Assembly: GCF_013004595.1 (NCBI RefSeq) | Contig: NZ_JABEMC010000008.1 | Location: forward strand, 1 to 64,000 | Reading direction: 5' to 3' | DNA length: 64,000 bases | DNA from: Brevibacterium luteolum | Lineage (GTDB): Bacteria; Actinomycetota; Actinomycetes; Actinomycetales; Brevibacteriaceae | Part shown: piece by piece, positions 7,470 through 63,468 of the stretch | Numbering within the stretch: the first letter of the stretch is position 1 | Layout: the number at the start of each line of letters is the position of its first letter | The notes under the pieces: generated by a model | What the model was told of the DNA's origin: nothing | Databases searched by the model: none | Seen by the model: only the letters and a program-made list of their open reading frames with translations | Position numbers and translations under genes: made by a program

Positions 7470-10097
7470 TCAGAACAGCGCGCCGCCCGCATCGTCCTCG
7501 TCACTGGAGACGATCACGACAGGGGAATCGTCCTCATCACGAGCCTGAGCGATCTCCTCCTTGCGGCGCGCCAGCTCGGCGGCACTGAGCCCACCCGCTG
7601 CGCCAGCATCCGCGGCGCTGCCAGCTCCCGCCTCGGGAACGGGCACCGCACCAGCTTCTGCACCGTAGTCATGCGCCACGGTGCCGATCGCATCGACCTT
7701 CGACTCCAGCGGTTGACCGGAGCCATCCCGCCTACCCAGCTCTGTGGGCAGCTTGCGGGCACCGCCGCCGGTGGCTGCGCCCTGCGGTTCGGGCCCGGCG
7801 AAGGCGGTGACGAGCTCGGTCTCGCCCTTGAGGAAGCGATGCGCACGCACGCCGGCGGTCGCGCGTCCCTTGGTGGGGAACTCGGCGAGATCGGTGACCT
7901 TGACGCTCAGCGCGGTCTCACCGTAGAAGTTCTCACCCGTCGCGATTGTCACAACGCGGTTCTCCGCCGCGGGATCGACAAGGCTGAAGGCGATGACCGA
8001 GGCATCGGCGGCGACCTTCATGCCGGTGACACCTCCGGCGTTCCAGCCCTGGGCGCGCAGCAGATCGGTGCCGAAGGTCAGCAGCTGGGCGTTCGAGGTG
8101 ATGAGCACCGCGCGGGCGGCGTCGATGTCGGGCAGCTGGCCGGCACCGATCACCGTGTCACCGGACTTGAGGTTGATGACATCCCAGGCATCCTTGCCCT
8201 TGGCAGGCTCCGCACCGGCAACGCGCTTGATGACCCCGCGGGCGGTGGCGAGGACGAAGTCCTTGGTGATGTCGACGAGCCCGAGCACCTTCTCCCCGGA
8301 GTCGAGGGTGACGAACTCACCGACCTTCACACCTCCGGCCAGGCCCGGCCGGGTGGCCTGCGGCGGCAGGGCCGGCAGGGCAACAACGTCGACGGTCAGC
8401 AGACGGCCCTTCGAGGTGATCGCACCGATGATCCCGCGGGTAGTCGAGGCGACCTGAGAGACCAGCGCGTCATGAGCTAAGCGCTTGCCGCCGGTCGGCA
8501 GAGCCGAACGGTCAGAGGTGCGGGCGATCCGACCCGAGGTTGAGAGCAGCACCCACGTCGGTGAGTCGGCGACCTGCAGCTCCGGTGAGCCCTTCTTGCG
8601 GCCGCGGGCAGTGATCTGCTTGTGCGAGCCTTCGACGAGCACGGTGCGGCGCGGGGAGTCGATCTGCTCGGCGACGGCGCCGAGCTCCTCAGAGACGACC
8701 TGGCGCAGCTTCGCCTCATCGTCGAGGATCGACTGCAGGTAGTCGATGCGCTTCTTCAGCTCATCCTGCTCCGCCTCAAGTTCGAGCCGGGAGAACTTCG
8801 TCAGCCGGCGCAGCTGCAGGTCGAGGATATAGGTCGCCTGCACCTCGGAGAGGTCGAAGACGCTCATCAGCCGGGTGCGGGCGATCTGCGCATCATCTGA
8901 GGATCGGATGAGTTCGATGACCTCGTCGATGTCGAGGATCGCGGTCAGCAGGCCCTCGACGAGGTGGAGGCGGTCCTTGGCCTTGCCGAGCTGGAAGACT
9001 GTGCGCCGGCGAGTGACGGCGATGCGGTGGTCGACGTAGACCTCCAGCAGCGCCTTGAGCCCAAGCGTGCGCGGCTGCCCGTCGACGAGGCAGACGTTGT
9101 TGATGCCGAAGGAGTCCTCCAGCGGGGTGAGCCGGTAGAGCTCTTCGAGCACCGCATCGGGGTTGAAACCGTTCTTGATGCCGATGACCAGCCGCAGGCC
9201 GTGCTTGCGGTCGGAGAAGTCGTCGATCGAGGCGATGCCGGCGAGCTTCTTGCTCCCGACGACGTCCTTGACCTTCTCGATGACCTTCTCCGGGCCGACG
9301 AGGTAGGGCAGCTCGGTGACGATGATGCCCTTGCGGCGGGCAGTGATGTTCTCGATCTTCACCGTCGCCCGGGTGCGGAAGGACCCGCGGCCGGTCTCGT
9401 AGGCCTCACGCACACCGGACAGCCCGATGATCCGGCCGCCGGAGGGGAGGTCGGGGCCAGGGACGTACTTCATGAGCTCCGAGAGCTCCGCTTCGGGGTT
9501 GTCGATGAGGTGCTGGGCTGCGGCGATGACCTCGCCGGGGTTGTGCGGGGCCATGTTCGTGGCCATGCCGACCGCGATTCCCGAGGCGCCGTTGACGAGC
9601 AGGTTCGGAAACGCACTCGGTAGGACTTCGGGCTGGGTGGTCGAGGAGTCGTAGTTGGGCACGAAGTCGACGACGTCCTCATCGAGGCCGGCGATCATCG
9701 TCAGCGCTGCGTCGGTCAGGCGGGCTTCGGTGTAGCGCGGGGCGGCCGGGCCGTCGTCAAGCGAGCCGAAGTTGCCGTGGCCGTCGACGAGCGGGGTGCG
9801 CATGACGAAGTCCTGGCTCAGCCGCACGAGGGCATCGTAGATGGCGACATCGGAGTGCGGGTGCAGTTTGCCCATGACGTCGCCGACGATGCGGGAGCTC
9901 TTGACGTGCGGACGGTCAGGGCGCAGGCCCATCTCGCCCATCTGGTAGATGATGCGCCGCTGCACGGGCTTGAGACCGTCGCGGGCATCTGGCAGTGCCC
10001 GGGAGTAGATCACCGAGTAGGCGTACTCGAGGAACGAGGTCTCCATCTCCTCGGAGACGTCGATATCGACGACCTGGCCAGCGACCGGCTCTGTCAT
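7470..10097 (-). CDS. parC: type II topoisomerase A subunit, actinobacterial topoisomerase IV-type paralog
   Basis: [16 protein letters not shown], catalytic [21 protein letters not shown]; no adjacent gyrB and no clear GyrA-box. Confidence 0.85.
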
Positions 10098-10182
10098 GGA
10101 ACTCCTTCGACGGGCGAAACGACAGGCCTATGCTACCGGCAAACCGACGCGAAGCCCGGGATTTCGCCGGGTGCGGAGGTTC

Positions 10183-13547: not shown

Positions 13548-14698
13548 GCATGCAGACGCGCCAAGCCCCTGACTACCGGAACTCCCCGCTGCTCTCCGAT
13601 GTCATCCCGGCTGCCGCGATCAGCCTCGGGGCCCGGGAGATCCTCGACGACGGAGCTGCTGAGCGGGCGCTGAAGCTCGGCTTCGATGCCGAACCGCGGG
13701 TGGTCGTCGTCGCGCTCATCGACGGACTCGGCGCCGAGCTGCTGCGCGCCCGTGCTGCGCACGCCCCGTTCCTGCGCGGGCTGCTGCCGGACATGCTCGC
13801 CATGAGCGCAGGCTTCCCGTCGACGACGGCGAACTCGCTGTCCTCCCTGGGCACCGGGATGCTGCCCGGCGCCCACGGGGTGGTCGGCTACCAGCTGCTC
13901 GACCCGGAGCGCGAGATCGTGTTCAACCAGCTGACCTGGGACCCCGAGGTCGATCCCGAGGTGTGGGTGCCGGATGCGACGATGTTCGAACGCCTCGTCA
14001 GCACCGGGGTCGACGTCGTCAGTCTGGGAGAGCCGAAGTTCGCCGGCCGCGGGCTCAACCAGGCATCCCTGCGCGGCGGCCGGTTCCGCGGCTCACGCAC
14101 GATGAGCCAGCGCGTCGATCACGCCCTCGAAGAGATCCGCCGGCCCGGCAGGCGCCTCGTCTACTTCTACTGGGGCAACCTGGACAAGACCGGCCACGTC
14201 CACGGCGTCGACTCATGGCATTGGCTCGAAGAACTCGAAGAGGTCGACGGGCACCTGTCGCGACTGGCCAACGGCCTGCCGCATGACGCCCAACTGGCCA
14301 TCACCGCCGACCACGGCATGGTCGACATCCCGCATGAGGGCCGCCTCGACCTCGCCGACCATCCGCACCTGCGCGAGGGGCTGCGTGCTGTGGGCGGCGA
14401 ACCGCGTGCGGTGCACCTCTACGTGCGGCCCGGCGCCTGCGAAACCGTCCACACCGCCTTCGCGGAGGCTCTCGGTAACCGGGCGCTGGTGATGACCCGT
14501 GAGCAGGCGATCGCCCGTGGCTTCTTCGGACCCGTGCGCCCGCAGAACCTCCAGCGCATCGGCGATGTCATCGTCGTCTGCGAGGCCGGCACCGGCATCG
14601 TCGATTCGGAGCACGACTCACCCTCGGCGCTCGCCCTCATCGGTCACCACGGCGGCATCACCAGCCAGGAGCTGGCGATCCCGCTCTTACGCACGTAA
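13544..14698 (+). CDS. alkaline phosphatase superfamily / nucleotide pyrophosphatase-phosphodiesterase
   Basis: LIDGLG, FPSTT, LDKTGH, TADHGM and GHHG. Confidence 0.88.
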   Translation: MSMQTRQAPDYRNSPLLSDVIPAAAISLGAREILDDGAAERALKLGFDAEPRVVVVALIDGLGAELLRARAAHAPFLRGLLPDMLAMSAGFPSTTANSLSSLGTGMLPGAHGVVGYQLLDPEREIVFNQLTWDPEVDPEVWVPDATMFERLVSTGVDVVSLGEPKFAGRGLNQASLRGGRFRGSRTMSQRVDHALEEIRRPGRRLVYFYWGNLDKTGHVHGVDSWHWLEELEEVDGHLSRLANGLPHDAQLAITADHGMVDIPHEGRLDLADHPHLREGLRAVGGEPRAVHLYVRPGACETVHTAFAEALGNRALVMTREQAIARGFFGPVRPQNLQRIGDVIVVCEAGTGIVDSEHDSPSALALIGHHGGITSQELAIPLLRT

Positions 14699-14735
14699 GC
14701 CGGCCACCGCCTCGGGCGCGGGGAGTGACACGCGG

Positions 14736-23468: not shown

Positions 23469-24953
23469 ATGGCCGAGCGCAGGCCCCTGAAGTACATCGA
23501 CCCGGTGCGCTATCCGGAGCATGCCAACCAGCCGGTGCGCAACGCCCGCGGCTGGATCCTGCTCGCGTCAACGGTCCTCGTGCCCGGCTCCGTGCAGTCG
23601 CTGTTTCGGGTACGCCGCTGGGCGAAGATCTCCCTCATCCTCACCCTCATCGGCTGGGCGCTGCTGCTCATCGCCGCGCTGACGGCGATCTTCGCCCGCG
23701 GCTTCCTCATCACCTTGGGCACCAACCCGTTCGTGCTCACCGGCGTCACCGCCTTCCTCGCCGTCTACACGCTCAACTGGATCGTGTGCCTGCTCGACAC
23801 TGTGCGCCGGGTGAAACTCGTGACGCTGTCACCGAAGGTCCGCCGCACATTCCTGGCCGCCAGCCTCGTGTGCACGCTCGTCATCGGCGGGGGACTGGCG
23901 TGGGGGACGATGATGATCAACAGCCAGCGTCAGCTCATGACCGATGTGTTCGCCGCCGGCTGGGGTCAGCGCGCCGTCGACGGCCGCTACAACATCCTGT
24001 TGCTCGGCTCCGACGCCGGCAAGGGCCGCACCGGCATCCGGCCTGACAGCCTCTCGCTCATCTCGATCGATGCGAAGACCGGCAAGGCTGTGAGCATCGG
24101 GATGCCGCGCAACATGCAGAACGTGCCCTTTCCCGAGGAGTCGCCGCTGCACAAGCACTATCCGCAGGGATTCAACTGCGGCGACGAGTGCATCCTCAAC
24201 GCCGTCTACCAGCAGGGTGAGAAGCACGCCGACGAGTTCGACGGCAAGACCCCCGCCGGCATCCAGGCGACCAAGGACGCCGCCGAAGGCATCACTGGGC
24301 TCAAAGTGCAGTATTACGCGATGATCGACCTCAAAGGCTTCGAGCAGCTCATCGACGCCATGGGCGGCATCGACATCGTCTCCGGCAAACGCGTGCCGAT
24401 CTCCTCGAAGGTCAACCCGAAGACCGGCAAGCACGGCCCGGTCAAAGGCTGGATCGAACCCGGCGAACAGCACCTCGACGGCTACCACGCGCTGTGGTAC
24501 GCCCGCTCCCGCGAGTTCTCCAGCGACTATGAGCGCATGGTTCGGCAGCGCTGCGTGCAGCAGGCGATGCTCAAGCAGCTCGATGCCTCGACGGTGATGC
24601 TGCGGTTCCAGGACATCGCCAAAGCCGCTCCCGAGGTGGTCTCCACTGATATCCCGCAGCTGCAGGTTGATAAGTTCGTCGACCTGGCGATGAAGTCGCG
24701 GGAGCACCAGATGGAATCGCTCAACCTCACCCCGCCGAAGGTCAACCCGACCCACCCGGACTTCGGTGCCGTCCACGAGCTCGTCTCCTCGACGATTGAG
24801 GCCTCCGAGAAGAACGCCGAGGACACCGCCGCGGGCCTCTCCGCTCTGGCTGGCGTGGCCCTGGCCACCGGCGGCATGCACATCACCGCAGCCCAGCCGG
24901 AGGGCGGCAATGGCACGGACGAGGACGACAAGGCCATCTGCCACGTCCCTTGA
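23469..24953 (+). CDS. LytR-CpsA-Psr (LCP) family cell-wall polymer ligase
   Basis: N-terminal TM helices; NILLLGSD, RPDS, PRN, ALWYARSR and SDYERMVRQ. Confidence 0.92.
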   Translation: MAERRPLKYIDPVRYPEHANQPVRNARGWILLASTVLVPGSVQSLFRVRRWAKISLILTLIGWALLLIAALTAIFARGFLITLGTNPFVLTGVTAFLAVYTLNWIVCLLDTVRRVKLVTLSPKVRRTFLAASLVCTLVIGGGLAWGTMMINSQRQLMTDVFAAGWGQRAVDGRYNILLLGSDAGKGRTGIRPDSLSLISIDAKTGKAVSIGMPRNMQNVPFPEESPLHKHYPQGFNCGDECILNAVYQQGEKHADEFDGKTPAGIQATKDAAEGITGLKVQYYAMIDLKGFEQLIDAMGGIDIVSGKRVPISSKVNPKTGKHGPVKGWIEPGEQHLDGYHALWYARSREFSSDYERMVRQRCVQQAMLKQLDASTVMLRFQDIAKAAPEVVSTDIPQLQVDKFVDLAMKSREHQMESLNLTPPKVNPTHPDFGAVHELVSSTIEASEKNAEDTAAGLSALAGVALATGGMHITAAQPEGGNGTDEDDKAICHVP

Positions 24954-25155
24954 CCGGTCGTCCAGCCCGGTTTCCGCACTGACTCCCCACCGCCTCGGCG
25001 GCGGTGCTCCCGTGACCCGGATGTCAGCAATCTCACCGAGTTCGCAAGGGGATCACAAAAAATTTTCAGCCCTCTCGAAGCGCATGAACACGCGGAACGA
25101 CATCGTTGTAATTCTTCTCACGAGGGATTTTTCAAAGCGACACGCCGCGAAGTAT

Positions 25156-31538: not shown

Positions 31539-32183
31539 TCACATCGAGACGGCAGGTCCGCTCAGCGTCACCGTCCCCGCCACCAGCGCCGCAAGCACTG
31601 CTGCCAGCTCCTCACCATCCACCGGGATTCCGGTGGTCTCAAGCTCCGTTCCCGAGGCGGTGGGCACCTCCCGGCTGTCGCTCGCCACCTGCTCGCCGCG
31701 AGGCAGTGTCAGGCTGATCTGGGTGCCGGGGATCGGGCACACGTCGGGGTGGGCCCGGACCTCGGAGTTGAAGTCGATGCAGCCCTCCGGCGCCTCGGCT
31801 GCCAGCGCAAGTGCCGGTGCCGCGTAGACGAAGACCTCATCTGCCTCAGTGGTGATCTCATCTGCGGCATGCGATTCATCAGCAAACGCGACCCATTCCG
31901 CCTCGGGCGGCTCCGAATCCGCGCCGAGCAGCGCCACCGGCGCATCGAGTCCGAAGGCGGCCAGCATCGCCGCCAGTGCCCGCCAGTGCAGGGGACCGGT
32001 CTCGTCGAGCACAATCCCGACACCCAGATCCGGGCCGACTCCCGCCTCGGCGAACAGGCTCGTGGTCTTGTACACCCAGTTCGCCACCACCGTGCCGGTG
32101 AGTTCCAGCCGCTCACTGCTTTCCGGCAGGTAGGTGAGCACCGGGTAGCGGCGAGAGGAAAGTGCGTCGATGAGCTGCTGCAT
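31539..32183 (-). CDS. TIGR03089-like conserved actinobacterial protein
   Basis: P.LTY....ERLELTG...ANWV.KT and LHWR; typical position near cofE and whiB. Confidence 0.75.
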   Translation of the reverse strand: MQQLIDALSSRRYPVLTYLPESSERLELTGTVVANWVYKTTSLFAEAGVGPDLGVGIVLDETGPLHWRALAAMLAAFGLDAPVALLGADSEPPEAEWVAFADESHAADEITTEADEVFVYAAPALALAAEAPEGCIDFNSEVRAHPDVCPIPGTQISLTLPRGEQVASDSREVPTASGTELETTGIPVDGEELAAVLAALVAGTVTLSGPAVSM

Positions 32184-37100: not shown

Positions 37101-37262
37101 CAGTACGCGATCGGCGTGGGCATCGGCTGGGTGCTCGTCTTCGTGTCCGTGCTCGTCGCAATCCCCTTCGGCAACCGGTCGCGTGCCCGCACCGCCCCAC
37201 GGCCGGCGACCACCGCCTCGGGCACGGCTGAACACCGGACCGACGAAAGGGTCAGCGCATGA
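34176..37262 (+). CDS. large membrane protein with degenerate GT2 domain and polytopic region
   Basis: GTGA overlap with whiB; GT2-like DYVWFL..D..P.PDCL and VVGPKI; many TM segments; conserved position after whiB. Confidence 0.8.
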   Translation: MSFSVAAVIRTGGHTVSRAWLTALRHHFPQITSVALLDDSRTAQKLARRRRRNPELPAGETLTAAELVSSPDLERADYVWFLSPDSLPEPDCLTQLHTRLSAADTLAVVGPKILSADGDLVSVGVTTTADGARYSPVSPGEEDAGQHNRREDVFAVDEPGMLVAAAVVRQLGVPSETLSVSYRGIEYCDRLRRAGHRVEVVPQARIAIPTEGIGRYYSSPRPLPHKHIVRHEHRYRLATATRGRSSIMQLKLTLLAVLKALGNLLANSPDEASWWLGAAWALPQDAHATRRLRRYRTGGSLPASVYASKHDLRSARRELAGVGGEVAADHLREDGALNTAGDLAEFSGIDIRTKRSLLFHPLVVIIVVSSIASALMFYRLIGPGAITGGAWARLDVPFAEVVTRIFSPVLELGLGSSTPADPLLSVLAVLSLPFGGSLDLMLRSLWLLALPLAATIMYLCAGRVVPAAGLRALLALIWIAQPAFLISLHDGRVGTVLSWIVAPAALWALDRSIHYRSVAAAAACGLAFAVIMAGSPFLIVPIIIVVITVMILYRSTSFIWALLPGIGLSWPWLIAAIRQPDALLTNPGRVLDYAQPHSFQLALGWATRPQLAFLENWLPAPAVPWVLAALLLPLLAALVLAALRVRNNLAVLALAVVCYSAGLAGAIVQAALEGQLTADGLVASFTGDSMLLIGLGFCGFTAAALWPVALDRGSRVRNYALRGLIPAGALLMITAFTLQSLLVGTPIHRTTASPLPAFAAERHTGALGQQTLILQSDDDQLYGQLVTPESNTILTTSTMHEARSISGHPFDRRPVAIDDADIALARVIGRLTSGSGDDTRTALDQLGIGFVVIRGSGASELAQTVAVSPGLTRLGATDQGLLYQVVPDGSPLSSASVVADDGSLSPVEIVDGRGEIPAGTGQRTLILAERVGLARVQINGQDAVREEARTGAPSWQAAYQLPDEASTVTISYTYPQYAIGVGIGWVLVFVSVLVAIPFGNRSRARTAPRPATTASGTAEHRTDERVSA

Positions 37263-39461: not shown

Positions 39462-40894
39462 TGACGACCCGAGCCGCACAGCTTTCGCGCGCCCTCAAGG
39501 CCTACGACATCCGTGGCCGGATCGGCATCGACCTCGACGACGACGTCGTCTTCGCCATCGGCTGGGCGACAGCCCACGTCATGCACCGCGAGCACGGCAG
39601 CAGCCGGGTCGTCATCGGCCGCGATATGCGCCCGGACTCCCCGCGGTTCGCCGAGGCGCTGGCCGCCGGGGTCGAAGCAGCCGGGTTCGAGGCCACACGG
39701 CTGGGCATGACGTCGACGGACCAGCTGTACTTCGCCTCCGGGCACTGGAATGCCCCTGGCCTCATGGTCACGGCGAGTCACAATCCTGCTGACTGGAACG
39801 GCATCAAGATCTGCGGCCCGGCCGCCGCCGGGATCTCCCGTGATTCCGGACTCGACGCCATCCGCCTGCTCGCCCTCGAAGCGCCTGAGCACCCAGGTGA
39901 GACGACTGGGCAGGTGCCCGTCGCCTCGGGCGCGGCCGCCAGCGAACTCGCTGAGGCCTTCGCCCGCCGGATCCGGTCGCTCACCGGGATTGAGGCGATC
40001 GACCGGCCGCTGCGGATCGTCGCCGACTGCGGCAACGGGATGGCTGGCAAGCTGCTGCCCGAGGTGTTCGGCACCGGAGCTGGGCTGGCGGCTGCCCCGA
40101 TCGACGTCATCGGGCTCTACACGGAGCTCGACGGCACCTTCCCCAACCACGAGGCGAACCCGCTCGACCCGGCGAATCTGCGCGATGTGCAGGCTGCAGT
40201 CGTCGGCCACGACGCTGACCTGGGCCTTGCCTTCGACGGCGATGCCGACCGCTGCTTCTTCATCGACGAACACGGTGAGGCAGTCTCGGCGTCTGCGATC
40301 GGCGCGCTTGTGGCCGTCCGCGAGATCAGCCGAGCCCGCACCGAGCGCGGCGAGGAGACCCCGGTCGTGCTGCACAACCTCATCACCTCACGCGCCGTGC
40401 CCGAGGCGATCACCGCCGCCGACGGACAGGCCGTGCGCACGCCGGTGGGTCACTCGCGGATCAAGCAGCTCATGCGCCAGCACGATGCCGTGTTCGCCTG
40501 CGAGCACTCCGCGCACTACTACTTCCGCGACTTCTACGGCGCTGATTCCGGAATCCTTGCCGCCTGCCACGTCATCGCGGCGCTGGCCGAGACGACCCAG
40601 CCGCTGAGCGAGCTCGTCGCCGAATGGAACCCGTACGTCGCCTCCGGGGAGATCAATTCCGTTGTCGACGACCCCGAGGCTGCACTCGCCCGGATCCGGC
40701 AGGCCGCCTTCGAGGGCGTGTTCGACGAATGCCAGGTCGATGACCTCGACGGGGTCATGATCGAGATGCCCGAGGCGTGGTGCAACGTCCGGCCGTCTAA
40801 CACCGAACCGCTCGTGCGCCTCAACTGCGAGGCGCCAACGCAGGAGCGCACCGATCAGCTCGTGTCCACAGCTCTGGAACTCATCCGCCGATAG
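39461..40894 (+). CDS. manB: phosphomannomutase/phosphoglucomutase
   Basis: KAYDIRG, TASHNP, FDGDADR, EHSAH and RPSNTEP. Confidence 0.93.
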   Translation: MTTRAAQLSRALKAYDIRGRIGIDLDDDVVFAIGWATAHVMHREHGSSRVVIGRDMRPDSPRFAEALAAGVEAAGFEATRLGMTSTDQLYFASGHWNAPGLMVTASHNPADWNGIKICGPAAAGISRDSGLDAIRLLALEAPEHPGETTGQVPVASGAAASELAEAFARRIRSLTGIEAIDRPLRIVADCGNGMAGKLLPEVFGTGAGLAAAPIDVIGLYTELDGTFPNHEANPLDPANLRDVQAAVVGHDADLGLAFDGDADRCFFIDEHGEAVSASAIGALVAVREISRARTERGEETPVVLHNLITSRAVPEAITAADGQAVRTPVGHSRIKQLMRQHDAVFACEHSAHYYFRDFYGADSGILAACHVIAALAETTQPLSELVAEWNPYVASGEINSVVDDPEAALARIRQAAFEGVFDECQVDDLDGVMIEMPEAWCNVRPSNTEPLVRLNCEAPTQERTDQLVSTALELIRR

Positions 40895-45219: not shown

Positions 45220-45315
45220 TCCCTTCCCGCGAGCACCACCGCAACCACCACCTCGGGCACGGCCTGCGGCCTGCCCGCCGGAGGCACCCCTCACTTGCGG
45301 TTATGCTGGGATCCT

Positions 45316-46314: not shown

Positions 46315-46390
46315 TCCCGCGCCCGAGGCGCCGGGCCGGGTGGCGAGGAACCGCGCCCGAGGCGTGCCTCACCTCGGTGCCGGTGACCGG

Positions 46391-47683: not shown

Positions 47684-48999
47684 CGCGGCACGCGGGTGGT
47701 GTCGATGATCGAGGCGAGCACCTGGTCGACGGTGATGCCGTCCATCTGCGCCTCCGGCCGCAGCATGACGCGGTGGCGGAAGGCCGGCGAGATGAGCGTC
47801 TTGACGTCATCGGGGGTGACGAACCCGCGCCCGGACATCCACGCCTGCGCCTGGGCTGCGGCCAGCAGCCGGGTGCCGCCGCGCGGGGAGATGCCCATCG
47901 CGAACGACGGTGCGCTGCGGGTGGCCTGCACGAGGTCGACGATGTAACCGAGCACCTCGGGATCGACGTAGATGTCACCGACCCGCTTCCCGGCCTCCAG
48001 GATCGTCGCAGCATCGGCGACGCGCTCGATCCCGGCATCGGACAGGCGCCGGCCGTCGAAGCCGTGGGCGTGGCGGGTGAGGATGTCAAGCTCGGTCTCG
48101 CGCTCGGGCAGCGTGAGCATGAGCTTGAAGAGGAACCGGTCGAGCTGCGCTTCGGGCAGGGGGTAGGTGCCGTCGTGCTCGATCGGGTTCTGGGTCGCGG
48201 CGACGACGAACGGCTGGGGCAGCCGGCGGGTCTGCCCGTCGACGGAGACCTGCCGCTCCTCCATCGCCTCCAGCAGTGCGGACTGGGTCTTCGGCGGGGT
48301 GCGGTTGATCTCATCGGCGATGAGCAGGTTGGTGAACACCGGGCCTTCGCGGAACTCGAAGTCGCCTGAGCGGGTGTCGTAGATCATCGAGCCGGTCACA
48401 TCGCCGGGCATGAGATCGGGGGTGAACTGCACGCGCGTCGAGTCGAGTTCGAGCGCCTCAGCCAGCGCGCGCACGAGCAGCGTCTTCGCCACGCCGGGCA
48501 CGCCTTCGAGCAGCACATGCCCGTGGCACAGCAGGGCCAGCAGGATCCCGTCGACGGCCTCATGCTGGCCGACGACCGCCTTGCCGACCTCCGTGCGCAC
48601 CGCGAGGAACCGCTCGCGCAGCTCGTGATCGCGGTCGGCCAGCTGGTGTTCGGCGGCCAGTCGCTCGTTAAGTCCCGGCTGCACCGTGCCCGAGGCGGTG
48701 GTCGCCTGGCCGTGGGCCGGCACCTGGCCGTGCGGCTGGCCTGGCATCTGTCCGGGAGCCGGCGCGTGCCCCGGTTGCTGGCCGGGCTGCTGGATCGGCA
48801 TCTGCCCGGTCTGGGGTGCGTGTTGTGGCGGCAGCGGCGCCTGACCCGGCTGCACACCGGGCTGACTGCCGACCGGACCACCGGGCTGGCTGCCGACCGG
48901 TACGCCGGGCCCGCCCGGCTGACCGCCCGACCCGAACGGACCAGCGGGCTGTCCCGGCTGCTGGCCGGGCTGCTGCGGATGGTGGGGAGTGTCGGTCAT
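47680..48999 (-). CDS. moxR: MoxR-family AAA+ ATPase with P/Q/G-rich N-terminal extension
   Basis: GHVLLEGVPGVAKT, QFTPDLMP, DEINRTPPKTQSALLEAM, ATQNP and AQLDRF. Confidence 0.95.
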   Translation of the reverse strand: MTDTPHHPQQPGQQPGQPAGPFGSGGQPGGPGVPVGSQPGGPVGSQPGVQPGQAPLPPQHAPQTGQMPIQQPGQQPGHAPAPGQMPGQPHGQVPAHGQATTASGTVQPGLNERLAAEHQLADRDHELRERFLAVRTEVGKAVVGQHEAVDGILLALLCHGHVLLEGVPGVAKTLLVRALAEALELDSTRVQFTPDLMPGDVTGSMIYDTRSGDFEFREGPVFTNLLIADEINRTPPKTQSALLEAMEERQVSVDGQTRRLPQPFVVAATQNPIEHDGTYPLPEAQLDRFLFKLMLTLPERETELDILTRHAHGFDGRRLSDAGIERVADAATILEAGKRVGDIYVDPEVLGYIVDLVQATRSAPSFAMGISPRGGTRLLAAAQAQAWMSGRGFVTPDDVKTLISPAFRHRVMLRPEAQMDGITVDQVLASIIDTTRVPR

Positions 49000-50240: not shown

Positions 50241-50962
50241 GCGCCGGCCTCCCCGCTGCCCGCGCCCGAGGCGGTGGTCGCCTGCGCAGGCTCCGCGCCC
50301 GAGGCGGTGGCCGAGCTGGCGGCTCCCGAGGCGGCGGACCGCGTGGAGACGGCCTGGGAGGTAGCGGCGGTGATCCGCTCGGCGCGGGCGAGCAGGTCCT
50401 GCCAGTCAGCGGCTGTGGCTTGGGCTTCGCCGAAGGTCACGGCGTCGAACAGCCCACCGGCGGCATGCGCATCGGCGGTGGCCGGCGGGCAGGCAGAAGC
50501 GGCCGCGCGGGCCAGCTCCGAGGCGGTCGAGGCGGCGGTCATGTCGATGAGACTCAGCGAAACGAACTGGGCGAAGATCGCCCGCACTCCGTTCTGCACT
50601 GCCAGCGTGTAGTCACCCCCGGCGGCTGCCGCATGCGCGGCGTCCCAGAAGGCCTGCGGGTTGATCGTCTCGGCCCGCTGGGCGGGGTCGAAGGCGGCGA
50701 GGTCGACGCCGCCGCTGGTGCCGCGGCGGACCCGCCAGATGACGAGCACGACGAGCCCGATGATGAGTGCGGCGATGACGAGCAGCGTCCACGGCGAGTC
50801 GATCGCGGCAGCGCTGCTGATGAGCCCGTCGAAGAACCGGTCGATGGCCCGGCCGAGCTTCTCCAGCGGGGACAGGTCGGCGTCGCGGTAATCCGGTTCG
50901 GACAGCTTCTTCTCAGCCCAGCGGCGGGCCTCATCGCGCTCAGGGGCCAGGGGAGTGCTCAT
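50237..50962 (-). CDS. DUF4129-like membrane protein
   Basis: P.RDEARRWA...LS.P.Y, TM segment, TASE and FDAVTFG; synteny. Confidence 0.8.
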   Translation of the reverse strand: MSTPLAPERDEARRWAEKKLSEPDYRDADLSPLEKLGRAIDRFFDGLISSAAAIDSPWTLLVIAALIIGLVVLVIWRVRRGTSGGVDLAAFDPAQRAETINPQAFWDAAHAAAAGGDYTLAVQNGVRAIFAQFVSLSLIDMTAASTASELARAAASACPPATADAHAAGGLFDAVTFGEAQATAADWQDLLARAERITAATSQAVSTRSAASGAASSATASGAEPAQATTASGAGSGEAGA

Positions 50963-52074
50963 GTGCTGCGATCCAGCTCCTCGGCCTCGCGCAGCAGCAG
51001 GAGGTCATAGCCTTCGAAGCGCATCCGACGGTCGAAGTACAGGCCGGTGATGACCCCGGACTGGTAGGCGTAGAGGACCGCGGTCGCCGCCGAGGTGAGC
51101 GCGAGCCCGAGGATCGTGAGGGTGGCGATCACGACGGCGCCGAAGGTCTCGGCGCTGCCGGAGTCGAGGATGGTCAGCGAGATGACGATCGCGGCGATGA
51201 AGAAGATGAGCAGCAGCGGGGAGACGATGATGCTGATGAGCTGCGAGGACAGGTAGCACGACAGCAGCAGGGTGCCGGTGGTGGCCCAAAAGCGGCGGCG
51301 CGTGAGCTGCCAGGAGCGGGCGAAGGCCTGCCGGATCGTCATCCGCTCGACGGCGATCGCGCAGCCGACGAAGGCGGTGCGGACCATGAAGAAGACGGTG
51401 AACACGACCCAGCCGAGCGCCCCGAGGCCGGCGAGCAGGAACCCAATGACGGCCTGTGAGGTGAACACCGCGATGATGACGCCGGGGGCGAGCAGCAGCG
51501 CCAGGGCTGCGAAGTGCGCCCCGCCGAGCAGGGCGGTGGCGGCGATGAGGCGCAGCCGCTGGCCGGCGAGCATCCCCCATGTGCGGCGCAGGGTCGTCGT
51601 CTTCTGCCCGCGCGCATCGACCGCACGCCCACCGGGCGGGGTGAAGAAGGCCTGCCGGGCAGGGATCGAGAGCAGCCCGGAGAGGAAGTGAAGGAAGCAC
51701 AGTGAGAGCAGCGAGACCGCGGAGGCTGCGAACTGCATGAGGAAGGACAGCCCACCGGCGGCATCGGAGCTGGCGAAGACCCCGACGAGATAGCCGAAGC
51801 TCAGCCAGATGAGCCCGGCCACAGCGGCGCTGACGGCCAGCAGGAACAGCGTCAGCACGATCATCGCAGTGCCGACTGAGACCCCGGGGCTGAAGCGCAG
51901 CAGCCGGAACCCGGCATCGAGTGACTCGGCGAAGCGCATCGGCCGCTTCGACAGCACCCCGGGCTTCGGCGCCGGCTGCCAGGCGGGGCGGGTGCGGGTC
52001 TGGCTGCGCGGCTGCCAGCGGCCGGTCGTCCAATCCGTCTGCGCATCCCAGGCGGCGCGGTCGGTGACGAACAA
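50959..52074 (-). CDS. polytopic membrane protein (Rv3689-like); start uncertain (TTG 52074 after AGGAGG, or ATG 52110)
   Basis: PKPGV...RP, LD.GFR, RSWQLTR..FW and YFDRRMRFEGYD motifs. Confidence 0.78.
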   Translation of the reverse strand: MFVTDRAAWDAQTDWTTGRWQPRSQTRTRPAWQPAPKPGVLSKRPMRFAESLDAGFRLLRFSPGVSVGTAMIVLTLFLLAVSAAVAGLIWLSFGYLVGVFASSDAAGGLSFLMQFAASAVSLLSLCFLHFLSGLLSIPARQAFFTPPGGRAVDARGQKTTTLRRTWGMLAGQRLRLIAATALLGGAHFAALALLLAPGVIIAVFTSQAVIGFLLAGLGALGWVVFTVFFMVRTAFVGCAIAVERMTIRQAFARSWQLTRRRFWATTGTLLLSCYLSSQLISIIVSPLLLIFFIAAIVISLTILDSGSAETFGAVVIATLTILGLALTSAATAVLYAYQSGVITGLYFDRRMRFEGYDLLLLREAEELDRST

Positions 52075-52287
52075 CGGCACCTCCTGCCTTGGGGTCAGAT
52101 CACGCCCCATTCTATGCACACGACCCCGGCACGCAGGCGACATTCGGGCACTCACTTGCATCACCGCCTCGGCGCCGGACCAGCAGGCGCGCCACGCGGG
52201 CCCGTCATGCAGACTCACCGTGTGAACCTGCCGACACCTGCCGCCCCCTGCGCTGACTTCTCAGCCGGATAGGTGACAATGGATGCT

Positions 52288-52968
52288 ATGAACGCACGGA
52301 TCCTGGTAATCGACGATGACACCGCGCTGGCGGAGATGATCGGCATTGTGCTCAAGAGCGAGGGCTTCGACCCGCACTTCTGCGCCACCGGCGATGGTGC
52401 GATGGAGGCCTTCCACAGTGTCAGGCCCGACCTCATCCTGCTCGACCTCATGCTGCCCGGCAAGGACGGCCTCGAGGTGTGCCGGGAGATCCGTGAGGAG
52501 TCCGGGGTGCCGATCATCATGCTCACCGCCAAGTCCGACACCGTCGACGTCGTCCTCGGACTCGAATCCGGTGCCGATGACTACGTGCCCAAGCCGTTCA
52601 AGCCCAAGGAGCTCGTCGCGCGCGTGCGCGCCCGCCTGCGGATGTCAGAGCCCTCCGCGCCCGAGGTGCTCAACGTCGGCGACGTCTCGATCGACGTCGC
52701 CGGGCACACCGTGACGAAGGGCGGCAAACCGGTGTCGCTGACCCCGCTGGAGTTCGACCTGCTCGTCGCGCTCGCCCGCAAACCCTGGCAGGTGTTCTCG
52801 CGCGAGACCCTGCTCGAGGAGGTGTGGGGCTATCGGCACGCCGCTGACACCCGGCTCGTCAACGTCCACGTCCAGCGGCTGCGCTCGAAGATCGAGAAGG
52901 ATCCGGAGAAGCCCGACATCGTCGTCACCGTCCGCGGTGTCGGCTACAAGGCGGGCCAGGCTTCGTGA
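52288..52968 (+). CDS. mtrA: OmpR-family response regulator MtrA
   Basis: ILVIDDDTALAEM, LLDLMLPG, WGYRHAADTRLVNVHVQRLRSK; precedes mtrB-lpqB. Confidence 0.97.
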   Translation: MNARILVIDDDTALAEMIGIVLKSEGFDPHFCATGDGAMEAFHSVRPDLILLDLMLPGKDGLEVCREIREESGVPIIMLTAKSDTVDVVLGLESGADDYVPKPFKPKELVARVRARLRMSEPSAPEVLNVGDVSIDVAGHTVTKGGKPVSLTPLEFDLLVALARKPWQVFSRETLLEEVWGYRHAADTRLVNVHVQRLRSKIEKDPEKPDIVVTVRGVGYKAGQAS

Positions 52969-54686: not shown

Positions 54687-56367
54687 CCTGCTCGCCGCCA
54701 TCCTCACAGCCGTGTTCCTCATCTCCGGCTGCGCTTCGATCCCGAAGGACGGATCGGTCGGCCACCGTGACGTCAGGGGCGATGACCCGCACGTCCAGTC
54801 GCGCATTGATCCCGACGGTCCTGTCCCCGGGCAGAGCCCGAACGAGATCGTCCGCGGGTTCCTCGCCGCCGGAGCCGGCTACAGCAACAACTTCGAAGTC
54901 GCCCGCTCCTACCTCACCGACAGCTTCGCCGACGAATGGAACCCGCTGTCCTCGGTCACTGTGCTGCAGCCTGGGCGCACACTGGATTCGGTGACGAGCG
55001 AGGTCACCACCGACTCGCAGTCGGTGTCGCTGACGATCCCGGTCGGCGGTGTGCTCGACGACCGCCGCATCTACCGCGAATCGGCCCGCGGCACCCAGGT
55101 CGATATGGACTTCACGCTGCGGCAGGTCAACGGCGAATGGCGGATCTCGCAGGCCCCGGCGGGCATGGTGCTCACCGCCGTGAACTTCTCGACCCTGTTC
55201 CAGCCCTACCCGCTGTACTTCTACTCACCGGGTTACGAGCTGCTCGTGCCCGACACCCGCTGGTTCATCCGCTCACCGGCGACGGCCAGTGAGATCATGA
55301 CCGAGCTGCTCGGCGGCCCGGCCGACTACCTCACCGGTGCCGTCGTCTCCGCGATCCCCGACGGCACCCAGCTCGACCCGCGCTCCGTTGCCGTCTCCGA
55401 CGGCGTCGCCCGCGTCGAACTGTCTGCGACTGCCTCGGGCCTGGATGAGCGCACCAACGGGCGGATCGCGATGCAGATCCAGACAACGCTCAAAGAAGTC
55501 GGGTCGATCACCGCGGCGCGGGTCTCCGGCACGAGCGGCGAACTCGACTACGGCTCCCTGCCCGATGTGCCCACCACGCTGAACATCTCCGGCAACCCGA
55601 TCGCGATCTCCGACCGGCGGCTCGTGCGCATCCTCGGCACCACCATCGAGCCGATCGACGGGGCCCCGCAGCTCGTCGACGGAGCGGCCCGGCCTGCGAT
55701 CGCCCTCGACGAGTCGATGTACGCCTACATCGCCGACGACGCGCAGGCTGTGCGGCGCCTGTTCGCCGACCGTCTCAACGACGAGGAGGTGCTGCGCGGT
55801 GAGAGCTACGCCAGCCTGTCCTTCGACAAGGAGGGCTGGCTGTGGGCGGCGGAGACGGCCTCCGACGGCAATATCCAGGCCATCAGCCGCAACAGCGACC
55901 TCACCGAGGTGGCGGTCCCGTTCCTGGGCGGCCGCACGGTGACGAGCATCGGCGTCTCACCCGACGGCACCCGCCTGGCAGTGCTCAGCAGCGACGGCGA
56001 CGACACCCGTCTGGAGGTCGTCGGCATCTCCCGGGACTCCCAGGGCGCCCCGACCGGGGTGTCCTCGGCGACGCCCCTGCAGGTGGCGACGGGCTTCTCG
56101 AAGATCACTGACTTCTCCTGGTTCGGCTACGACGCCCTCGTCCTGCTCGGCGCCGAACAGGGCACGAGCGTCGAACCGCTGTCCGTGCCGGTCTCCGGGC
56201 CCTCGACCTCGCTCGGCTCGATCGAGGGCGGCACGCAGATCACCTCCGGTGAGGAACAGCGCTCCGTGCGCGTCGGCACCGCTGACGGCGAGATCTACAG
56301 CTACGGGGCAGGCTCGTGGCAGAAGCTCGTCGACGCCCAGACCTACGACCCGGCAGCGCCGGGCTGA
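54673..56367 (+). CDS. lpqB: lipoprotein LpqB
   Basis: lipobox LISGC; EIVRGFL, GEWRIS, LVPD.RW and VSPDGTR; SD AGGAGG. Confidence 0.93.
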   Translation: MRPRSLLAAILTAVFLISGCASIPKDGSVGHRDVRGDDPHVQSRIDPDGPVPGQSPNEIVRGFLAAGAGYSNNFEVARSYLTDSFADEWNPLSSVTVLQPGRTLDSVTSEVTTDSQSVSLTIPVGGVLDDRRIYRESARGTQVDMDFTLRQVNGEWRISQAPAGMVLTAVNFSTLFQPYPLYFYSPGYELLVPDTRWFIRSPATASEIMTELLGGPADYLTGAVVSAIPDGTQLDPRSVAVSDGVARVELSATASGLDERTNGRIAMQIQTTLKEVGSITAARVSGTSGELDYGSLPDVPTTLNISGNPIAISDRRLVRILGTTIEPIDGAPQLVDGAARPAIALDESMYAYIADDAQAVRRLFADRLNDEEVLRGESYASLSFDKEGWLWAAETASDGNIQAISRNSDLTEVAVPFLGGRTVTSIGVSPDGTRLAVLSSDGDDTRLEVVGISRDSQGAPTGVSSATPLQVATGFSKITDFSWFGYDALVLLGAEQGTSVEPLSVPVSGPSTSLGSIEGGTQITSGEEQRSVRVGTADGEIYSYGAGSWQKLVDAQTYDPAAPG

Positions 56368-56439
56368 CGGCCGCCGACCTGAGGTCACAAACGCCGTCTC
56401 CCCGTTGCCCGCGCCCGAGGCGCCGGGCAGGCTGGGACG

Positions 56440-57180
56440 ATGGGCGCACCTCGGGCACGGGGCCCGGTCACAGCGTGGGCGGCCGCAGCCGCCGATGAGC
56501 TCGCCGAGCTCGTCATCCCGCGCGCCTGCGTGGGCTGCGGGGCCGACACCGTCTCCGTGTGCGGACACTGCCTGACCGGGATGGCCACCGAGACCATCAC
56601 CGCGGTGCCGCGCTACGGCACCGCAGCTGTCACCGCCGCAGGGCCCTACACCGGGGTGCTGCGGGCAGCGCTGGTGGCCTTCAAGGAATCAGGCCGGAAG
56701 GACCTCGCCCCGCTGCTCGGCCTGCAGCTGGCCCGGTCGCTCACCGCCTGCCTGCAGGAGACCCCGGCACCCGGCAGGCTCGTCATCCTCGTCCCGGTCC
56801 CGGCCACACCGCGGGCGCGCCGGGCACGCGACGGCAACCACGTCGCCCAGCTGTGCGCGGCCGCCGCAGATCTGCTGAACACCGACGGGCTGCGGGTGCA
56901 CACCGCCGAGCTGCTGACAGTCAGGCGGCACCGCGACCAGGTCGGCTTCGGCGCCCGCAGCCGGCGCCGCAACGTGCGCGGCTCCCACGCACTCGACACC
57001 CGCCTGACACCTCGGGCCCGGCACGCGCTGTCGGAGGCGACCACGATCCTCATCGACGACATCTGCACCACCGGGGCAACCCTTGCCGAGTCGGCACGCG
57101 CGCTGCGCACCGGCGGCATCCTGCCATGTGGAACAGCTGTGATCGCACTCGCCCCCGGCAGTGGTTCCCTCGAGCGCTGA
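56440..57180 (+). CDS. comF: ComF-family phosphoribosyltransferase-like protein
   Basis: CVGC..CGHC zinc finger, LVPVP, DQVG and LIDDICTTGATL; start uncertain. Confidence 0.88.
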   Translation: MGAPRARGPVTAWAAAAADELAELVIPRACVGCGADTVSVCGHCLTGMATETITAVPRYGTAAVTAAGPYTGVLRAALVAFKESGRKDLAPLLGLQLARSLTACLQETPAPGRLVILVPVPATPRARRARDGNHVAQLCAAAADLLNTDGLRVHTAELLTVRRHRDQVGFGARSRRRNVRGSHALDTRLTPRARHALSEATTILIDDICTTGATLAESARALRTGGILPCGTAVIALAPGSGSLER

Positions 57181-57260
57181 GATGGTATGTAATGGAGTAA
57201 CCCCATCCGATCGGATGGGTACGGAGCGATCCGTCTCCCCGACGTGTAAAGGAAGTCACC

Positions 57261-57950
57261 ATGGACATCGTCGTCAAAGGTCGCCACACGACCATCTCCG
57301 ACAGTTTCCGGTCACATATCGAGGACAAGGTCTCCAAGGTCGAGCAGCTGGCGCCGCGCGCCCTGCGCACCGAGGTCGTCGCCACGCACGACGCGAACAC
57401 CAGCCAGCCCGACACCGCCGAGCGCGTTGAGATCACCGTCATCGCCAAGGGCCCGGTGCTCCGCGCGGAGGCACACGCATCCGACCGCTACGCGGCCCTC
57501 GACCTCGCCTGGGCGAAGCTGCTTGAGCGACTGCGCCGGGCGCGCGATCGCCGCAAGGTCTCCCGCAAGGGCGGACACCGCCAGGCCTCGACCGCCGAGG
57601 CGCTCGCCGAGCTCGAAGTCATCGAGCCGCTGGCGCCGAGCCAGGAGGACGACAGCCAGACCGAGCAGCCCAGCACCGACAAGACCAACGGGCGCATCAA
57701 GTCCGAAGGCGATTCGCCGGTGGTGCTGCGCGAGAAGAACTTCCCCGCCAACCCGATCGGCATCGAGGAGGCCCTCAACCGGATGGAGATGGTCGGCCAC
57801 GACTTCTACATCTTCATCGATGAGGAGACCTCCAAGCCCTCGGTCGTCTACCGCCGCCGCGGCTGGAGCTACGGCGTCATCACCCTCGACGAGTCGCTCA
57901 ACGACACCGCCGAGGCGCCGGCCGAGCAGCCGGCAGCAGCGGAGGGATGA
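57261..57950 (+). CDS. hpf: long ribosome hibernation promoting factor
   Basis: MDIVVKGRH, RVEIT, YAALD, EEAL..MEMVGHDF and VVYRR...YG. Confidence 0.93.
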   Translation: MDIVVKGRHTTISDSFRSHIEDKVSKVEQLAPRALRTEVVATHDANTSQPDTAERVEITVIAKGPVLRAEAHASDRYAALDLAWAKLLERLRRARDRRKVSRKGGHRQASTAEALAELEVIEPLAPSQEDDSQTEQPSTDKTNGRIKSEGDSPVVLREKNFPANPIGIEEALNRMEMVGHDFYIFIDEETSKPSVVYRRRGWSYGVITLDESLNDTAEAPAEQPAAAEG

Positions 57951-62077: not shown

Positions 62078-62088
62078 TCACCAGCTCG

Positions 62089-62133
62089 TGATGGCGGTCT
62101 GTCGGCAGCATCTGCTGCCGCAGGCCGCCATCA
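62089..62133. terminator. hairpin between secA and the convergent gene
   Basis: TGATGGCGG..CGGCAGC-atct-GCTGCCG..CCGCCATCA. Confidence 0.65.
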
Positions 62134-62179
62134 GCATTCACGGACGAATCGACGGTTGCCTCAGGCGGTCTCCAGCGGT

Positions 62180-62677
62180 TCAGGCGGTTTCCAGCTGGGT
62201 GACGAGCCACCGGTTGCGGATGTGCTCCAACCGCAGGGCGACCGCACGGTGGCGCCGGCCGGTGTTGACGACGACCGCCGCCTCGGCCACGCGCGGGCCG
62301 ACAAGGCACACCCGCGGGTTGCCAGCAGAGAGCATCGCAGGACGCGGTGGTGCCGCCTTGGCCAGCTGCTGCCGGTATGCGGCATGCGCGCGGATCCGCT
62401 CGAAGAGATCCGGGGCCACCCATTTGCCGACCGATGACGGGGCACGCGTGCCGCCGAAGATTTCGATGATCGCCACCGACAGTGACGACGCGGCCGCCTG
62501 CAGCGCTTCGATGAGGTCCTGTTGCTCGGCCTCCGCTGCGCGGCTGGTCTCGGGTTCCGGTCGCCGCGTGGCAGCCGGAACTGGCGACGGTGCCTGTCTC
62601 GGTGCAGTCTCGGCGCGCGGCCTGGGGCGGGTGAGGGTCAGTTCGCCGGGTGCGGCGTCGGTCATCATCGTGGTCAT
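62180..62677 (-). CDS. Rv3235-family protein
   Basis: IEIFGGTR, AEAAVVV..G.R.RAVALRLE....RW.VTQLE; convergent to secA. Confidence 0.82.
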   Translation of the reverse strand: MTTMMTDAAPGELTLTRPRPRAETAPRQAPSPVPAATRRPEPETSRAAEAEQQDLIEALQAAASSLSVAIIEIFGGTRAPSSVGKWVAPDLFERIRAHAAYRQQLAKAAPPRPAMLSAGNPRVCLVGPRVAEAAVVVNTGRRHRAVALRLEHIRNRWLVTQLETA

Positions 62678-63468
62678 GGCATCTCCAATCGCTGTCCAGG
62701 CATGATGAGGTTCGGGTCGGCACCGATGATGTGCCGGTTGGCGTCGTGGATCGCATCAACGCGATCAATGAGCTCTGCGCTCTCGGCCCCGGCGTAGTGC
62801 TCGGCGGCGATCGTCCAGAGGGAATCTCCTGCGCTCACCGTTGCAACGTCAGGCGAGGCCGGGGTTCTGTGATCATCTGAGTCCCTGCCGTGGTCCGTTC
62901 CCGAGGTGCCGGGCTGCTGCGTGGGAGCGTCCGGATAGGGAGTGGTCGGGTCCTCGTCATCGGCAGTCGGTGACGTCGATTCCTCCGATGGCGGAGCCGG
63001 GCTGTCAGTCGGGCCGGCGGACGGTGAGTCCGGCGACCGGGTCGGCCAGCCAGGGGAGGAGGGCGCTGTCGTGCTCGACTCTGCAGGGCGGGTCGGCCAG
63101 CCGGGAGACGGCGCATCGGGTGCTGCCGCGGCGGCCGTCGCGAAGCCGGTGCCTGTCAGGATGAGGCCGGCACACGAGGCGGCGACAACACGCCGGAACC
63201 TGGCCGGGCTCATCGCAATCGCCGCCTGGGCGCAGCGGTCGGCAGCCACGTGACCGAACAGCCGAGCCGCATGGGCGAGACCACTGAGCACCGTGGCGCA
63301 CGTGAGACGCGCACCGGCGAGGACTGCTGCACTGCCGGCGATGAGCACCAGACCGGCGCCGATGTCACCTTGACCGAGCGCCACCATCAGCTCCGGGGCG
63401 CTGGCACACAGCCACAGGGTCATGACGATGTGTGTGAGGCTCAGCAGCCGTGTCAGCCAGATCAGCAT
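62674..63468 (-). CDS. membrane-anchored LysM protein
   Basis: TM N-terminus, duplicated SPGWPTR, LysM TVSAGDSLWTIA...N...IGADPNLIMPGQRL; SD AGGAG. Confidence 0.88.
   Translation of the reverse strand: MLIWLTRLLSLTHIVMTLWLCASAPELMVALGQGDIGAGLVLIAGSAAVLAGARLTCATVLSGLAHAARLFGHVAADRCAQAAIAMSPARFRRVVAASCAGLILTGTGFATAAAAAPDAPSPGWPTRPAESSTTAPSSPGWPTRSPDSPSAGPTDSPAPPSEESTSPTADDEDPTTPYPDAPTQQPGTSGTDHGRDSDDHRTPASPDVATVSAGDSLWTIAAEHYAGAESAELIDRVDAIHDANRHIIGADPNLIMPGQRLEMP

Follow-up and report, generated by a model that had tools for sequence, protein, structure and literature searches.

Sequence-biased DNA uptake has been described for the Neisseriaceae and Pasteurellaceae (PMC7811141) and, through methylation, for Campylobacter (PMC10046745), in these accounts all Gram-negative bacteria. 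The DNA uptake sequences (DUS) and uptake signal sequences (USS) of the first two families are asymmetric words of hundreds to thousands of copies that make up about 1% of the genome, with a strict core and weaker flanks, dialects, and a bias in reading frame; they arise by point mutation and are depleted in new DNA and in constrained genes (PMC7811141; 10.1101/2025.10.24.684340), and about half of them lie in terminators (10.1101/2025.10.24.684340). In Campylobacter jejuni, CtsM marks self DNA by methylation and uptake needs the mark, RA(m6)ATTY (PMC10046745), methylation of the cyanobacterial word HIP1 aids transformation (10.1101/2024.09.10.611283), and natural transformation of Micrococcus luteus depends on Tad/Flp (PMC4322843, PMC6370729). 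Here we analyze a word that shares most of these traits of DUS and USS, in a 64,000-nucleotide stretch of Brevibacterium luteolum DNA (G000:C20:1-64000, hereafter the window) and in its source genome, G000 (2,965,761 bp, 67% GC). We judge it an even proposition that this word is a self-DNA signal, resembling an uptake sequence and spread by transformation-linked drive.

The original prediction had listed 17 copies of CCGYKCCCGAGGYG in the window, and each was found at its coordinate and on its strand. It had also put the chance expectation well below one, in agreement with dinucleotide shuffles of the window (n = 100), which gave a mean of 0.06 and a maximum of 1. Across G000 there are 481 exact copies (250 on the plus strand and 231 on the minus), against Markov expectations of 2.3, 3.0, 33, and 123 at orders 3, 5, 7, and 8. 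Genes were called with a home-made caller (2,564 genes, 86% coding) that missed some, among them a probable LysM gene at 62895. Of the 481 copies, 327 fall within called genes, 153 are intergenic, and 1 sits on a gene edge. Relaxing each position in turn gave a 24-bp consensus, CCG-B-K-C-CCGAGGYG-GTGGYCGCCT, in which positions 7 to 14 (CCGAGGYG) are near-invariant, the initial CCG is strong, positions 4 to 6 are loose, and the 3' tail is weaker. A 24-bp matrix with a cut-off of at least 17 bits finds 1,044 sites in 2.97 Mb, covering 0.84% of the DNA and touching 598 of the called genes; the reversed genome, searched with the same matrix, yielded 6 sites at 16 bits and none at 18. The motif carries 22 bits of information, about 10 bits above the need for 1,000 sites.

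Conservation at the DNA level, as first proposed, is borne out by the matrix profile, which is unchanged between intergenic, sense-frame, and antisense-frame copies; the element is therefore a DNA word. An artefact of codon or amino acid usage (Pro-Glu-Ala and Ala-Ser-Gly in a GC-rich genome) would fit the crowding of 293 of the 327 coding copies into two reading frames, and other Actinomycetes do have a sense-frame excess of the 8-bp core of up to about 2.9-fold; but 20 synonymous-codon shuffles that kept every protein left only about 8 coding copies, the excess extends to intergenic and antisense DNA, and most genomes of the genus stand above every outgroup genome, as detailed below. This explanation is refuted for the 14- to 24-bp word, with a partial contribution to counts of the 8-mer. 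The long flanks common to distant copies are also real: 37205-37227 is the reverse complement of 48684-48706, 14701-14721 that of 50293-50313, 46316-46336 is identical to 56408-56428, and 48684-48708 matches 50260-50284 at 24 of 25 positions. Their source is the motif's own weaker 10-bp 3' extension and not recent duplication; beyond the 24 bp, no common sequence was found among the G000 copies.

Coding sites were compared with G048 in 228 aligned pairs of orthologues: of 87 sites, 68 (78%) are gap-free and 4 are at least 80% gapped, with an identity of 42% at the sites and 62% over the whole genes. Many sites lie few changes away from the outgroup sequence, and we therefore ascribe their origin mostly to substitution at tolerant places. 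Spread by insertion of a repetitive extragenic palindromic (REP) or miniature inverted-repeat transposable (MITE) element, which the original prediction had entertained, could account for the copies that sit in linker insertions and for the gain and loss of 33-34-bp tandem units and the inverted duplications seen among relatives and strains. The 34-bp unit 46317-46350 is missing in run X6, a comparison of 7 site clusters showed an extra unit in G072 and in the Brevibacterium gallinarum locus L001, and runs X2 and X6 carry an inverted extra copy at 45240-45264. A mobile repeat is nonetheless most improbable, in view of the gap-free majority of coding sites, often with a near-match in the outgroup, the absence of a Y1 or REP-associated tyrosine (RAYT) transposase from this 100%-complete genome, and the lack of both a common sequence beyond 24 bp and hairpin covariation. 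The word likewise departs from REP and bacterial interspersed mosaic elements with a RAYT, which combine a covarying hairpin, a mainly intergenic location, and a Y1 transposase.

In three close relatives (41, 28, and 62 sites), conservation at third codon positions was 0.95, 0.91, and 0.90 in the core against 0.79, 0.72, and 0.65 in the flanks, and at intergenic sites 0.97, 0.97, and 0.85 against 0.86, 0.85, and 0.67, a gap of which the selection of sites in G000 explains at most half. G057 keeps the core at 139 of 205 sites, compared with 11 of 42, 38 of 83, and 36 of 85 (26-46%) for control octamers. The MtrB encoded in the window shares 97% identity with its counterpart in B. gallinarum L001 and 65-68% with those of three other named Brevibacterium loci. 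At the level of strains, Brevibacterium genomes are recombination mosaics: strain X2 is identical to the window over 46459-48385 yet has 89 differences among about 2,450 bases of secA, and strain X5 shows 337 differences among the 12,268 bases of 45233-57500 and only 14 among about 2,770 of secA.

The core, CCGAGG followed by YG or YC, is enriched throughout the genus and carries clade-specific flanks, so that the clades use dialects built on one core. Among 69 Brevibacterium genomes, the ratio of CCGAGGYG to CCGACGYG, a Glu-to-Asp control octamer, has a median of 6.3, against 1.3 (maximum, 4.37) in 142 other genomes of the order, and 59 of the 69 exceed 4.4 and thus all 142, although these ratios are inflated because the control octamer is itself scarce in Brevibacterium. 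Samples of the Brevibacterium groups with the YG form have a 2.3- to 10-fold intergenic and a 1.5- to 5.5-fold antisense excess, against 0- to 2.0-fold and 0.7- to 2.1-fold in seven outgroup pools; five Arthrobacter/Micrococcaceae loci have little antisense and no intergenic YG excess. The longer form CCGBKCCCGAGGYG occurs 763 times in G057, 668 in G047, 606 in G000, 471 in G072, and 308 in G022, and mostly 25 times or fewer in the large-genome Brevibacterium group. A de novo word search gave the G022 dialect as CCG(CTC/CCG)-CCGAGGCG-CCCTG; the G058 clade (58% GC) uses CCGAGGT(G/C)G, with 196 cores against 24 expected in 220 kb, the group of L004 (B. celere) CG-CCGAGGYG, and G020 and G064 CCGAGGCC. 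Six genomes in a clade with L003 (B. jeotgali) have a YG ratio of 1.0-1.5, which is no excess, and lean weakly to YC, as in G065, with 685 YG and 2,536 YC forms; this lean speaks against a clean loss, and the weak signal in these six may reflect either a loss or a shift towards CCGAGGYC. The G058 samples (L088, L143-L152) also hold a second over-represented word, GCTCGCTTTGCGCCGT, with 8 or 9 copies in 220 kb and no relation to the CCGAGG core. Outside Brevibacterium, the top core ratios (4.4, 3.9, and 3.2) are those of G171, G118, and G187, of family f8 of the order; a different PF01555 gene, about 380 aa long, is present in G171 and G118.

When three methylase families were scanned in five genomes, a single gene proved common to all five; it encodes a 474-aa PF01555 protein at G000:C19:71088-72512 on the minus strand, outside the window. 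Methylases of PF00145 and PF02384 were rejected as writers, each being present in only two of the five. Orthologues of the candidate (E ≤ 1e-114) occur in 66 of the 69 genus genomes, including records named B. luteolum, B. linens, B. casei, B. epidermidis, and B. iodinum, and are absent from G011, G061, and G080; a search of 282 further genomes from the order gave none at E ≤ 1e-60. The locus is syntenic in the five loci compared, with the same permease and oxidase genes on either side and no space for res; an HNH-domain gene (G000:C19:72704-74338; L192:10707-12338) lies beside the methyltransferase in G000 and is not seen in the four other loci. The closest structures are type III Mod subunits, namely EcoP15I Mod (4zcf), a Helicobacter pylori Mod (6k0w), and Mbo45V (7dsu), and the best sequence matches and the beta-class motif order agree with this. 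Compared with relatives of 614-630 aa that share its recognition region, the enzyme lacks most of the N-terminal extension and the C-terminal domain. Because the catalytic DPPY and S-adenosylmethionine-binding F(F)AGSG motifs are intact while res and the C-terminal domain are gone, it is an orphan Mod derivative; its length of about 400-490 aa, the missing res neighbor, and its vertical retention in the genus set it apart from type III restriction-modification systems, which have an adjacent res and an intact C-terminal domain. The target-recognition region is conserved.

Methylation by type III Mods affects one strand of an asymmetric site. The strict core contains a single adenine, that of CCGAGG, and the complement of this hexamer has none. 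Judged separately, the prediction that the enzyme targets the CCGAGG core is evenly poised. Other type III Mods are recorded as recognizing ccgAg and ccgAgc (PMC4752239), and "Brevibacterium" does not occur in six supplementary files of that article. Homology gave no specificity, since none was stated for the 20 looked up of the 45 clusters that share the recognition region, and no Brevibacterium methylome was found in the literature outside REBASE.

An orphan methyltransferase in company with an over-represented word invites comparison with cyanobacterial HIP1, likewise a lineage-wide word with an associated methylase. HIP1 is an 8-bp palindrome, whereas the Brevibacterium word is asymmetric, extends up to 24 bp, and has dialects, and its right half is weak and does not covary with the left. 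An internal drive of the HIP1 kind, in which the orphan Mod, or a repair or recombination enzyme reading its mark, would bias mismatch resolution or crossover with no role in uptake, would fit the co-occurrence of a genus-confined methyltransferase with the word, the origin of sites by substitution, and the fact that the three methyltransferase-free genomes have the lowest core density outside the YC clades (0.33-0.45/kb). The aid that HIP1 gives to transformation, dependent on methylation and homology (10.1101/2024.09.10.611283), is in keeping with such a drive. We consider it a less likely but serious rival; a methylase site of 5-6 bp does not account for 24-bp clade-specific flanks when the recognition region is near-invariant, and CCGAGG shows no enrichment where the right flanks are missing (CCGAGGCC stands at 0.5-1.0-fold in the G000 clade).

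Strand and position along the chromosome were mapped on a pseudo-chromosome built from 13 contig pieces, which together hold 2.83 of 2.97 Mb; their approximate order was taken from synteny with 20 G048 samples and from dnaA. The orientation is without polarity (511 leading to 509 lagging strand), and every 150-kb bin holds between 31 and 77 sites. The FtsK-orienting polar sequence (KOPS), Chi, or architecture-imparting sequence kind of signal, whose strand skew flips at the origin and terminus, is thereby disfavored, as is the matS, Noc-binding, SlmA-binding, or parS kind, with tens of regional palindromic sites against about 1,000 here in all bins. There is, however, a two-fold gradient from origin to terminus, from 58-74 sites per 150 kb in the bins beside oriC to 31-48 around the terminus (Spearman −0.79, p = 6e-5). 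Because of this gradient, a site for an abundant chromosome-organizing or nucleoid protein, weakly selected where tolerated and with binding perhaps modulated by the methyltransferase, is kept as a less likely but serious alternative. The long degenerate 22-bit footprint, the conservation at silent sites, and short tandem spacings with maxima at 20-21 and 33 bp, close to two and three turns of the helix, would also suit a protein site, as would the partial mirroring of the core by the tail: the half-site echo CRCCTC lies 5 bp past the 14-mer (CGAGGYG-N5-CRCCTC) in 52 of 662 sites, and the full 33-bp palindrome is present in 8. Yet the copies, about 1,000 of them, also run all through the terminus half, unlike Noc, SlmA, or matS sites, their spacing is clumped (coefficient of variation, 1.2) and not regular, the surplus of about 10 bits is what drive would give, and the flanks shift between clades while gene order stays constant. 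No candidate protein turned up, although no proteome screen was made for one.

Exact copies are densest just after stop codons, at 1.54/kb against 0.13/kb in genes (about 12-fold). Among 1,172 cores we counted only 32 close inverted pairs, and 12 of these follow directly on a stop codon. Both observations could point to an RNA-level element, such as a terminator, pause, or stability hairpin, in many transcripts. Downstream of genes, though, orientation is unbiased (44 sense to 50 antisense in 701 windows), two thirds of the copies lie within genes on either strand, and positions 13 and 21 of the internal palindrome show no covariation (Fisher p = 0.83). The inverted pair in the window, 56409+ and 56447− (56409..56460, 3' of lpqB), folds no better than its shuffles (z = −0.24), and a reading through hairpins or RNA structure was accordingly rejected as very unlikely.

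The distribution among genes and mobile elements is uneven. Genes with the strongest codon bias are the poorest in sites (1.4 against up to 4.6 per 10 kb). The largest gap between sites is a siphovirus prophage with portal, coat, and tail Pfam matches, where no site was found against 13 expected and the bare 8-mer is lowered but present (17 in 37 kb); a contig with a TrwC relaxase, C7, has none against 8.9 expected. The Brevibacterium phage AGM1 has 0.28 cores per kb (10 in 36 kb; control, 6), compared with 1.1 per kb in samples of the large-genome Brevibacterium group. The prophage itself (G000:C1, about 45-82 kb; L183, L184) encodes a capsid protein 69% identical to that of B. aurantiacum phages AGM1-16, and the motif-free contig (G000:C7; L187) is 25 kb long and encodes an integrase-core transposase, the relaxase, and ABC and MFS transporters.

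Point-mutation origin, depletion in new and constrained DNA, a core with flanks, and dialects are expected from biased uptake followed by recombination, and the self-DNA reading takes its support from them. The copy number and the presence of sites on both strands without polarity agree with DUS and USS as well. Under this reading, the Mod derivative would write m6A at CCGAGG on one strand, and a reader in the Tad/Flp-ComEA-ComEC path, or at a step just past entry, would favor the word with its flanks; favored fragments would recombine more often, matching variants would spread where tolerated, by molecular drive, and changes in the reader would produce dialects. That a type III methylase has been domesticated as a self-marker, with a reader, based on Tad/Flp or ComEA, that recognizes the word in its hemimethylated state, is a tentative proposal, and the conjunction of transformation-linked drive with a methyltransferase that targets the core is to our mind similarly on the doubtful side of even. 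The genes for such a path are present: comEC and Tad-type ATPases occur in 69 of 69 genus genomes, dprA in the five examined, and comEA and two tad/flp clusters in G000; apart from a comF-like gene described below, the com and tad genes are located outside the window.

Several observations weigh against this reading. Because tad1, tad2, comEA, and comEC are equally complete in strong- and weak-signal genomes, the model is permitted but not singled out, and a clade-specific pilin or com gene was rejected as the reader, the com/tad set being common to both kinds of genome. No receptor or pilin that tracks the dialects was seen in the tad and com loci of 10 relatives; the tad2 pilins of G018 had no match in the locus examined. 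The target-recognition region of the methyltransferase is nearly invariant between dialect clades, so the enzyme cannot explain the dialects. The covariation of gene and motif holds at the genus boundary and is imperfect within the genus: the six genomes without YG excess possess the gene and show only a weak excess of CCGAGGCC (sense, 2.3-fold; antisense, 1.2-fold; intergenic, 2.6-fold), and G011, G061, and G080, which lack it, retain a weak signal bordering on the outgroup range (ratios of 2.9-4.5) and a 1.5- to 5.8-fold excess by frame class. G011 and G061 are basal in a FastTree tree, with weak support (0.27-0.80), and nested in another, unrooted tree. The comEA-comEC region has no strong site across 20 kb, post-stop inverted pairs number only 12 where DUS and USS form them frequently in terminators, the gradient and the tandem spacings suit a chromosome protein, and the strain mosaics could stem from transduction or conjugation.

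Two neighbors of the tad clusters are recorded here. A 1,297-aa protein with an FtsK/SpoIIIE domain (G000:C18:61375-65268; L186:13375-17265), encoded after tad2 in G000 and in 8 of 10 relatives examined, is a possible DNA-translocating partner of the pilus. A helicase of the MrfA/Hrq1 type (G000:C1:198191-200641; L185:12194-14641) adjoins tad1 in G000 and in 8 of 9 relatives examined.

In its apparent working, the motif resembles both DUS/USS and the CtsM system and is a member of neither. Compared with DUS and USS, its sequence is unrelated, its host is a Gram-positive actinobacterium with Tad/Flp pili in place of type IVa pili and ComP, and it has few copies in terminator hairpins, an origin-to-terminus gradient, and an associated methyltransferase. 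The conserved orphan adenine methylase beside an over-represented word recalls CtsM, but the CtsM site RAATTY is a 6-bp palindrome, whereas the Brevibacterium word lacks such symmetry, would carry the methyl mark on one strand only, and is set in long flanks that are specific to each clade, and the candidate enzyme derives from a type III Mod and has a predicted target. The two tad clusters with comEA, comEC, and dprA in G000 are reminiscent of M. luteus (PMC4322843, PMC6370729); "uptake sequence" does not occur in PMC4322843. In the literature searched, with most subscription journals, REBASE, and bioRxiv supplements outside it, we found no account of the word, of competence in Brevibacterium, or of the enzyme's target. 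The original view of an undescribed, uptake-sequence-like signal is supported, with a nucleoid-protein site still beside it and the REP-like and KOPS/Chi-like options disfavored.

If the proposal of a domesticated self-marker with its own reader is true, this would be a third independent uptake-sequence system, with no earlier example among Gram-positive bacteria; it would combine a methyl mark of the Campylobacter kind with dialects of the Neisseria kind and would have rewritten linkers in about a quarter of the proteins of the genome. A signal throughout the genus and a named candidate writer make self-DNA recognition by a monoderm with Tad/Flp pili, and also the origin of such words, directly testable, and the genus offers natural contrasts between long and short dialects, YG and YC forms, and genomes with and without the methylase. 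A simple transformation route might follow for the cheese-ripening species B. aurantiacum and B. linens. Should a nucleoid protein or a repair bias be responsible instead, the word would still record an undescribed force that has shaped about 1% of the genome, hundreds of proteins included.

Within the window, most of the host-gene labels first assigned were upheld by Pfam: the ParC-type tail, MoxR, DUF4129, MtrA, and the phosphoglucomutase/phosphomannomutase (PGM/PMM). An exception was a GT2 label for 34083-37262, which had no Pfam match at E ≤ 1e-5; this gene, of 1,059 aa, carries in its C-tail the copy at 37204..37227 (minus strand, 29.9 bits, read as TASGT). On the minus strand there are also copies at 7619..7642 (21.0 bits), read as PVPEA in the C-tail of a topoisomerase IV/gyrase A protein, at 14698..14721 (28.9 bits, intergenic), at 39912..39935, read as VASGA in the linker between PGM/PMM domains, and at 45239..45262, either 5' of a SpoIIM-family gene or within its N-arm. 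Plus-strand copies lie at 24625..24648 (16.7 bits) in an LCP-family gene identified by Pfam (AAPEV), at 31646..31669 (29.7 bits), antisense within a 214-aa gene without a Pfam match (TASGT), at 40395..40418 in PGM/PMM domain III (AVPEA), at 52655..52678 in the MtrA linker from receiver to DNA-binding domain (SAPEV), and at 62895..62918, probably antisense in the linker of the LysM gene, which was identified by eye. The near-consensus copy at 48684..48707 (plus strand, 31.6 bits) is antisense within the N-arm of MoxR (TASGT). Two arrays on the plus strand are the intergenic tandem pair at 46317..46374, with a spacing of 34 bp, and the tandem copies at 50260 and 50293, which with a one-mismatch copy at 50320 occupy the DUF4129 C-tail (50260..50333).

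The matrix found further minus-strand copies at 2425..2448 (21.9 bits, a CCGCCG variant), 24981..25004 (17.5 bits), and 56998..57021 (18.0 bits), the last within a comF-like gene. This gene (56440..57180, plus strand) encodes a phosphoribosyltransferase-fold protein (PF00156, E = 2e-5, under the curated cut-off); from its position after lpqB we take it to be comF, and it would then be part of the predicted transformation machinery.

Two other repeats were noted, one elsewhere in the genome and one in the window. A palindrome separate from the CCGAGG word, GTTTCACGTGAAAC, occurs in six copies just before dnaA (G000:C12, about 360-363 kb) and is presumably a parS-type site. At window positions 27340-27513, an 18-bp tandem array codes for KKDDSK repeats in an amidase-LGFP-NlpC/P60 protein (25213-27897).

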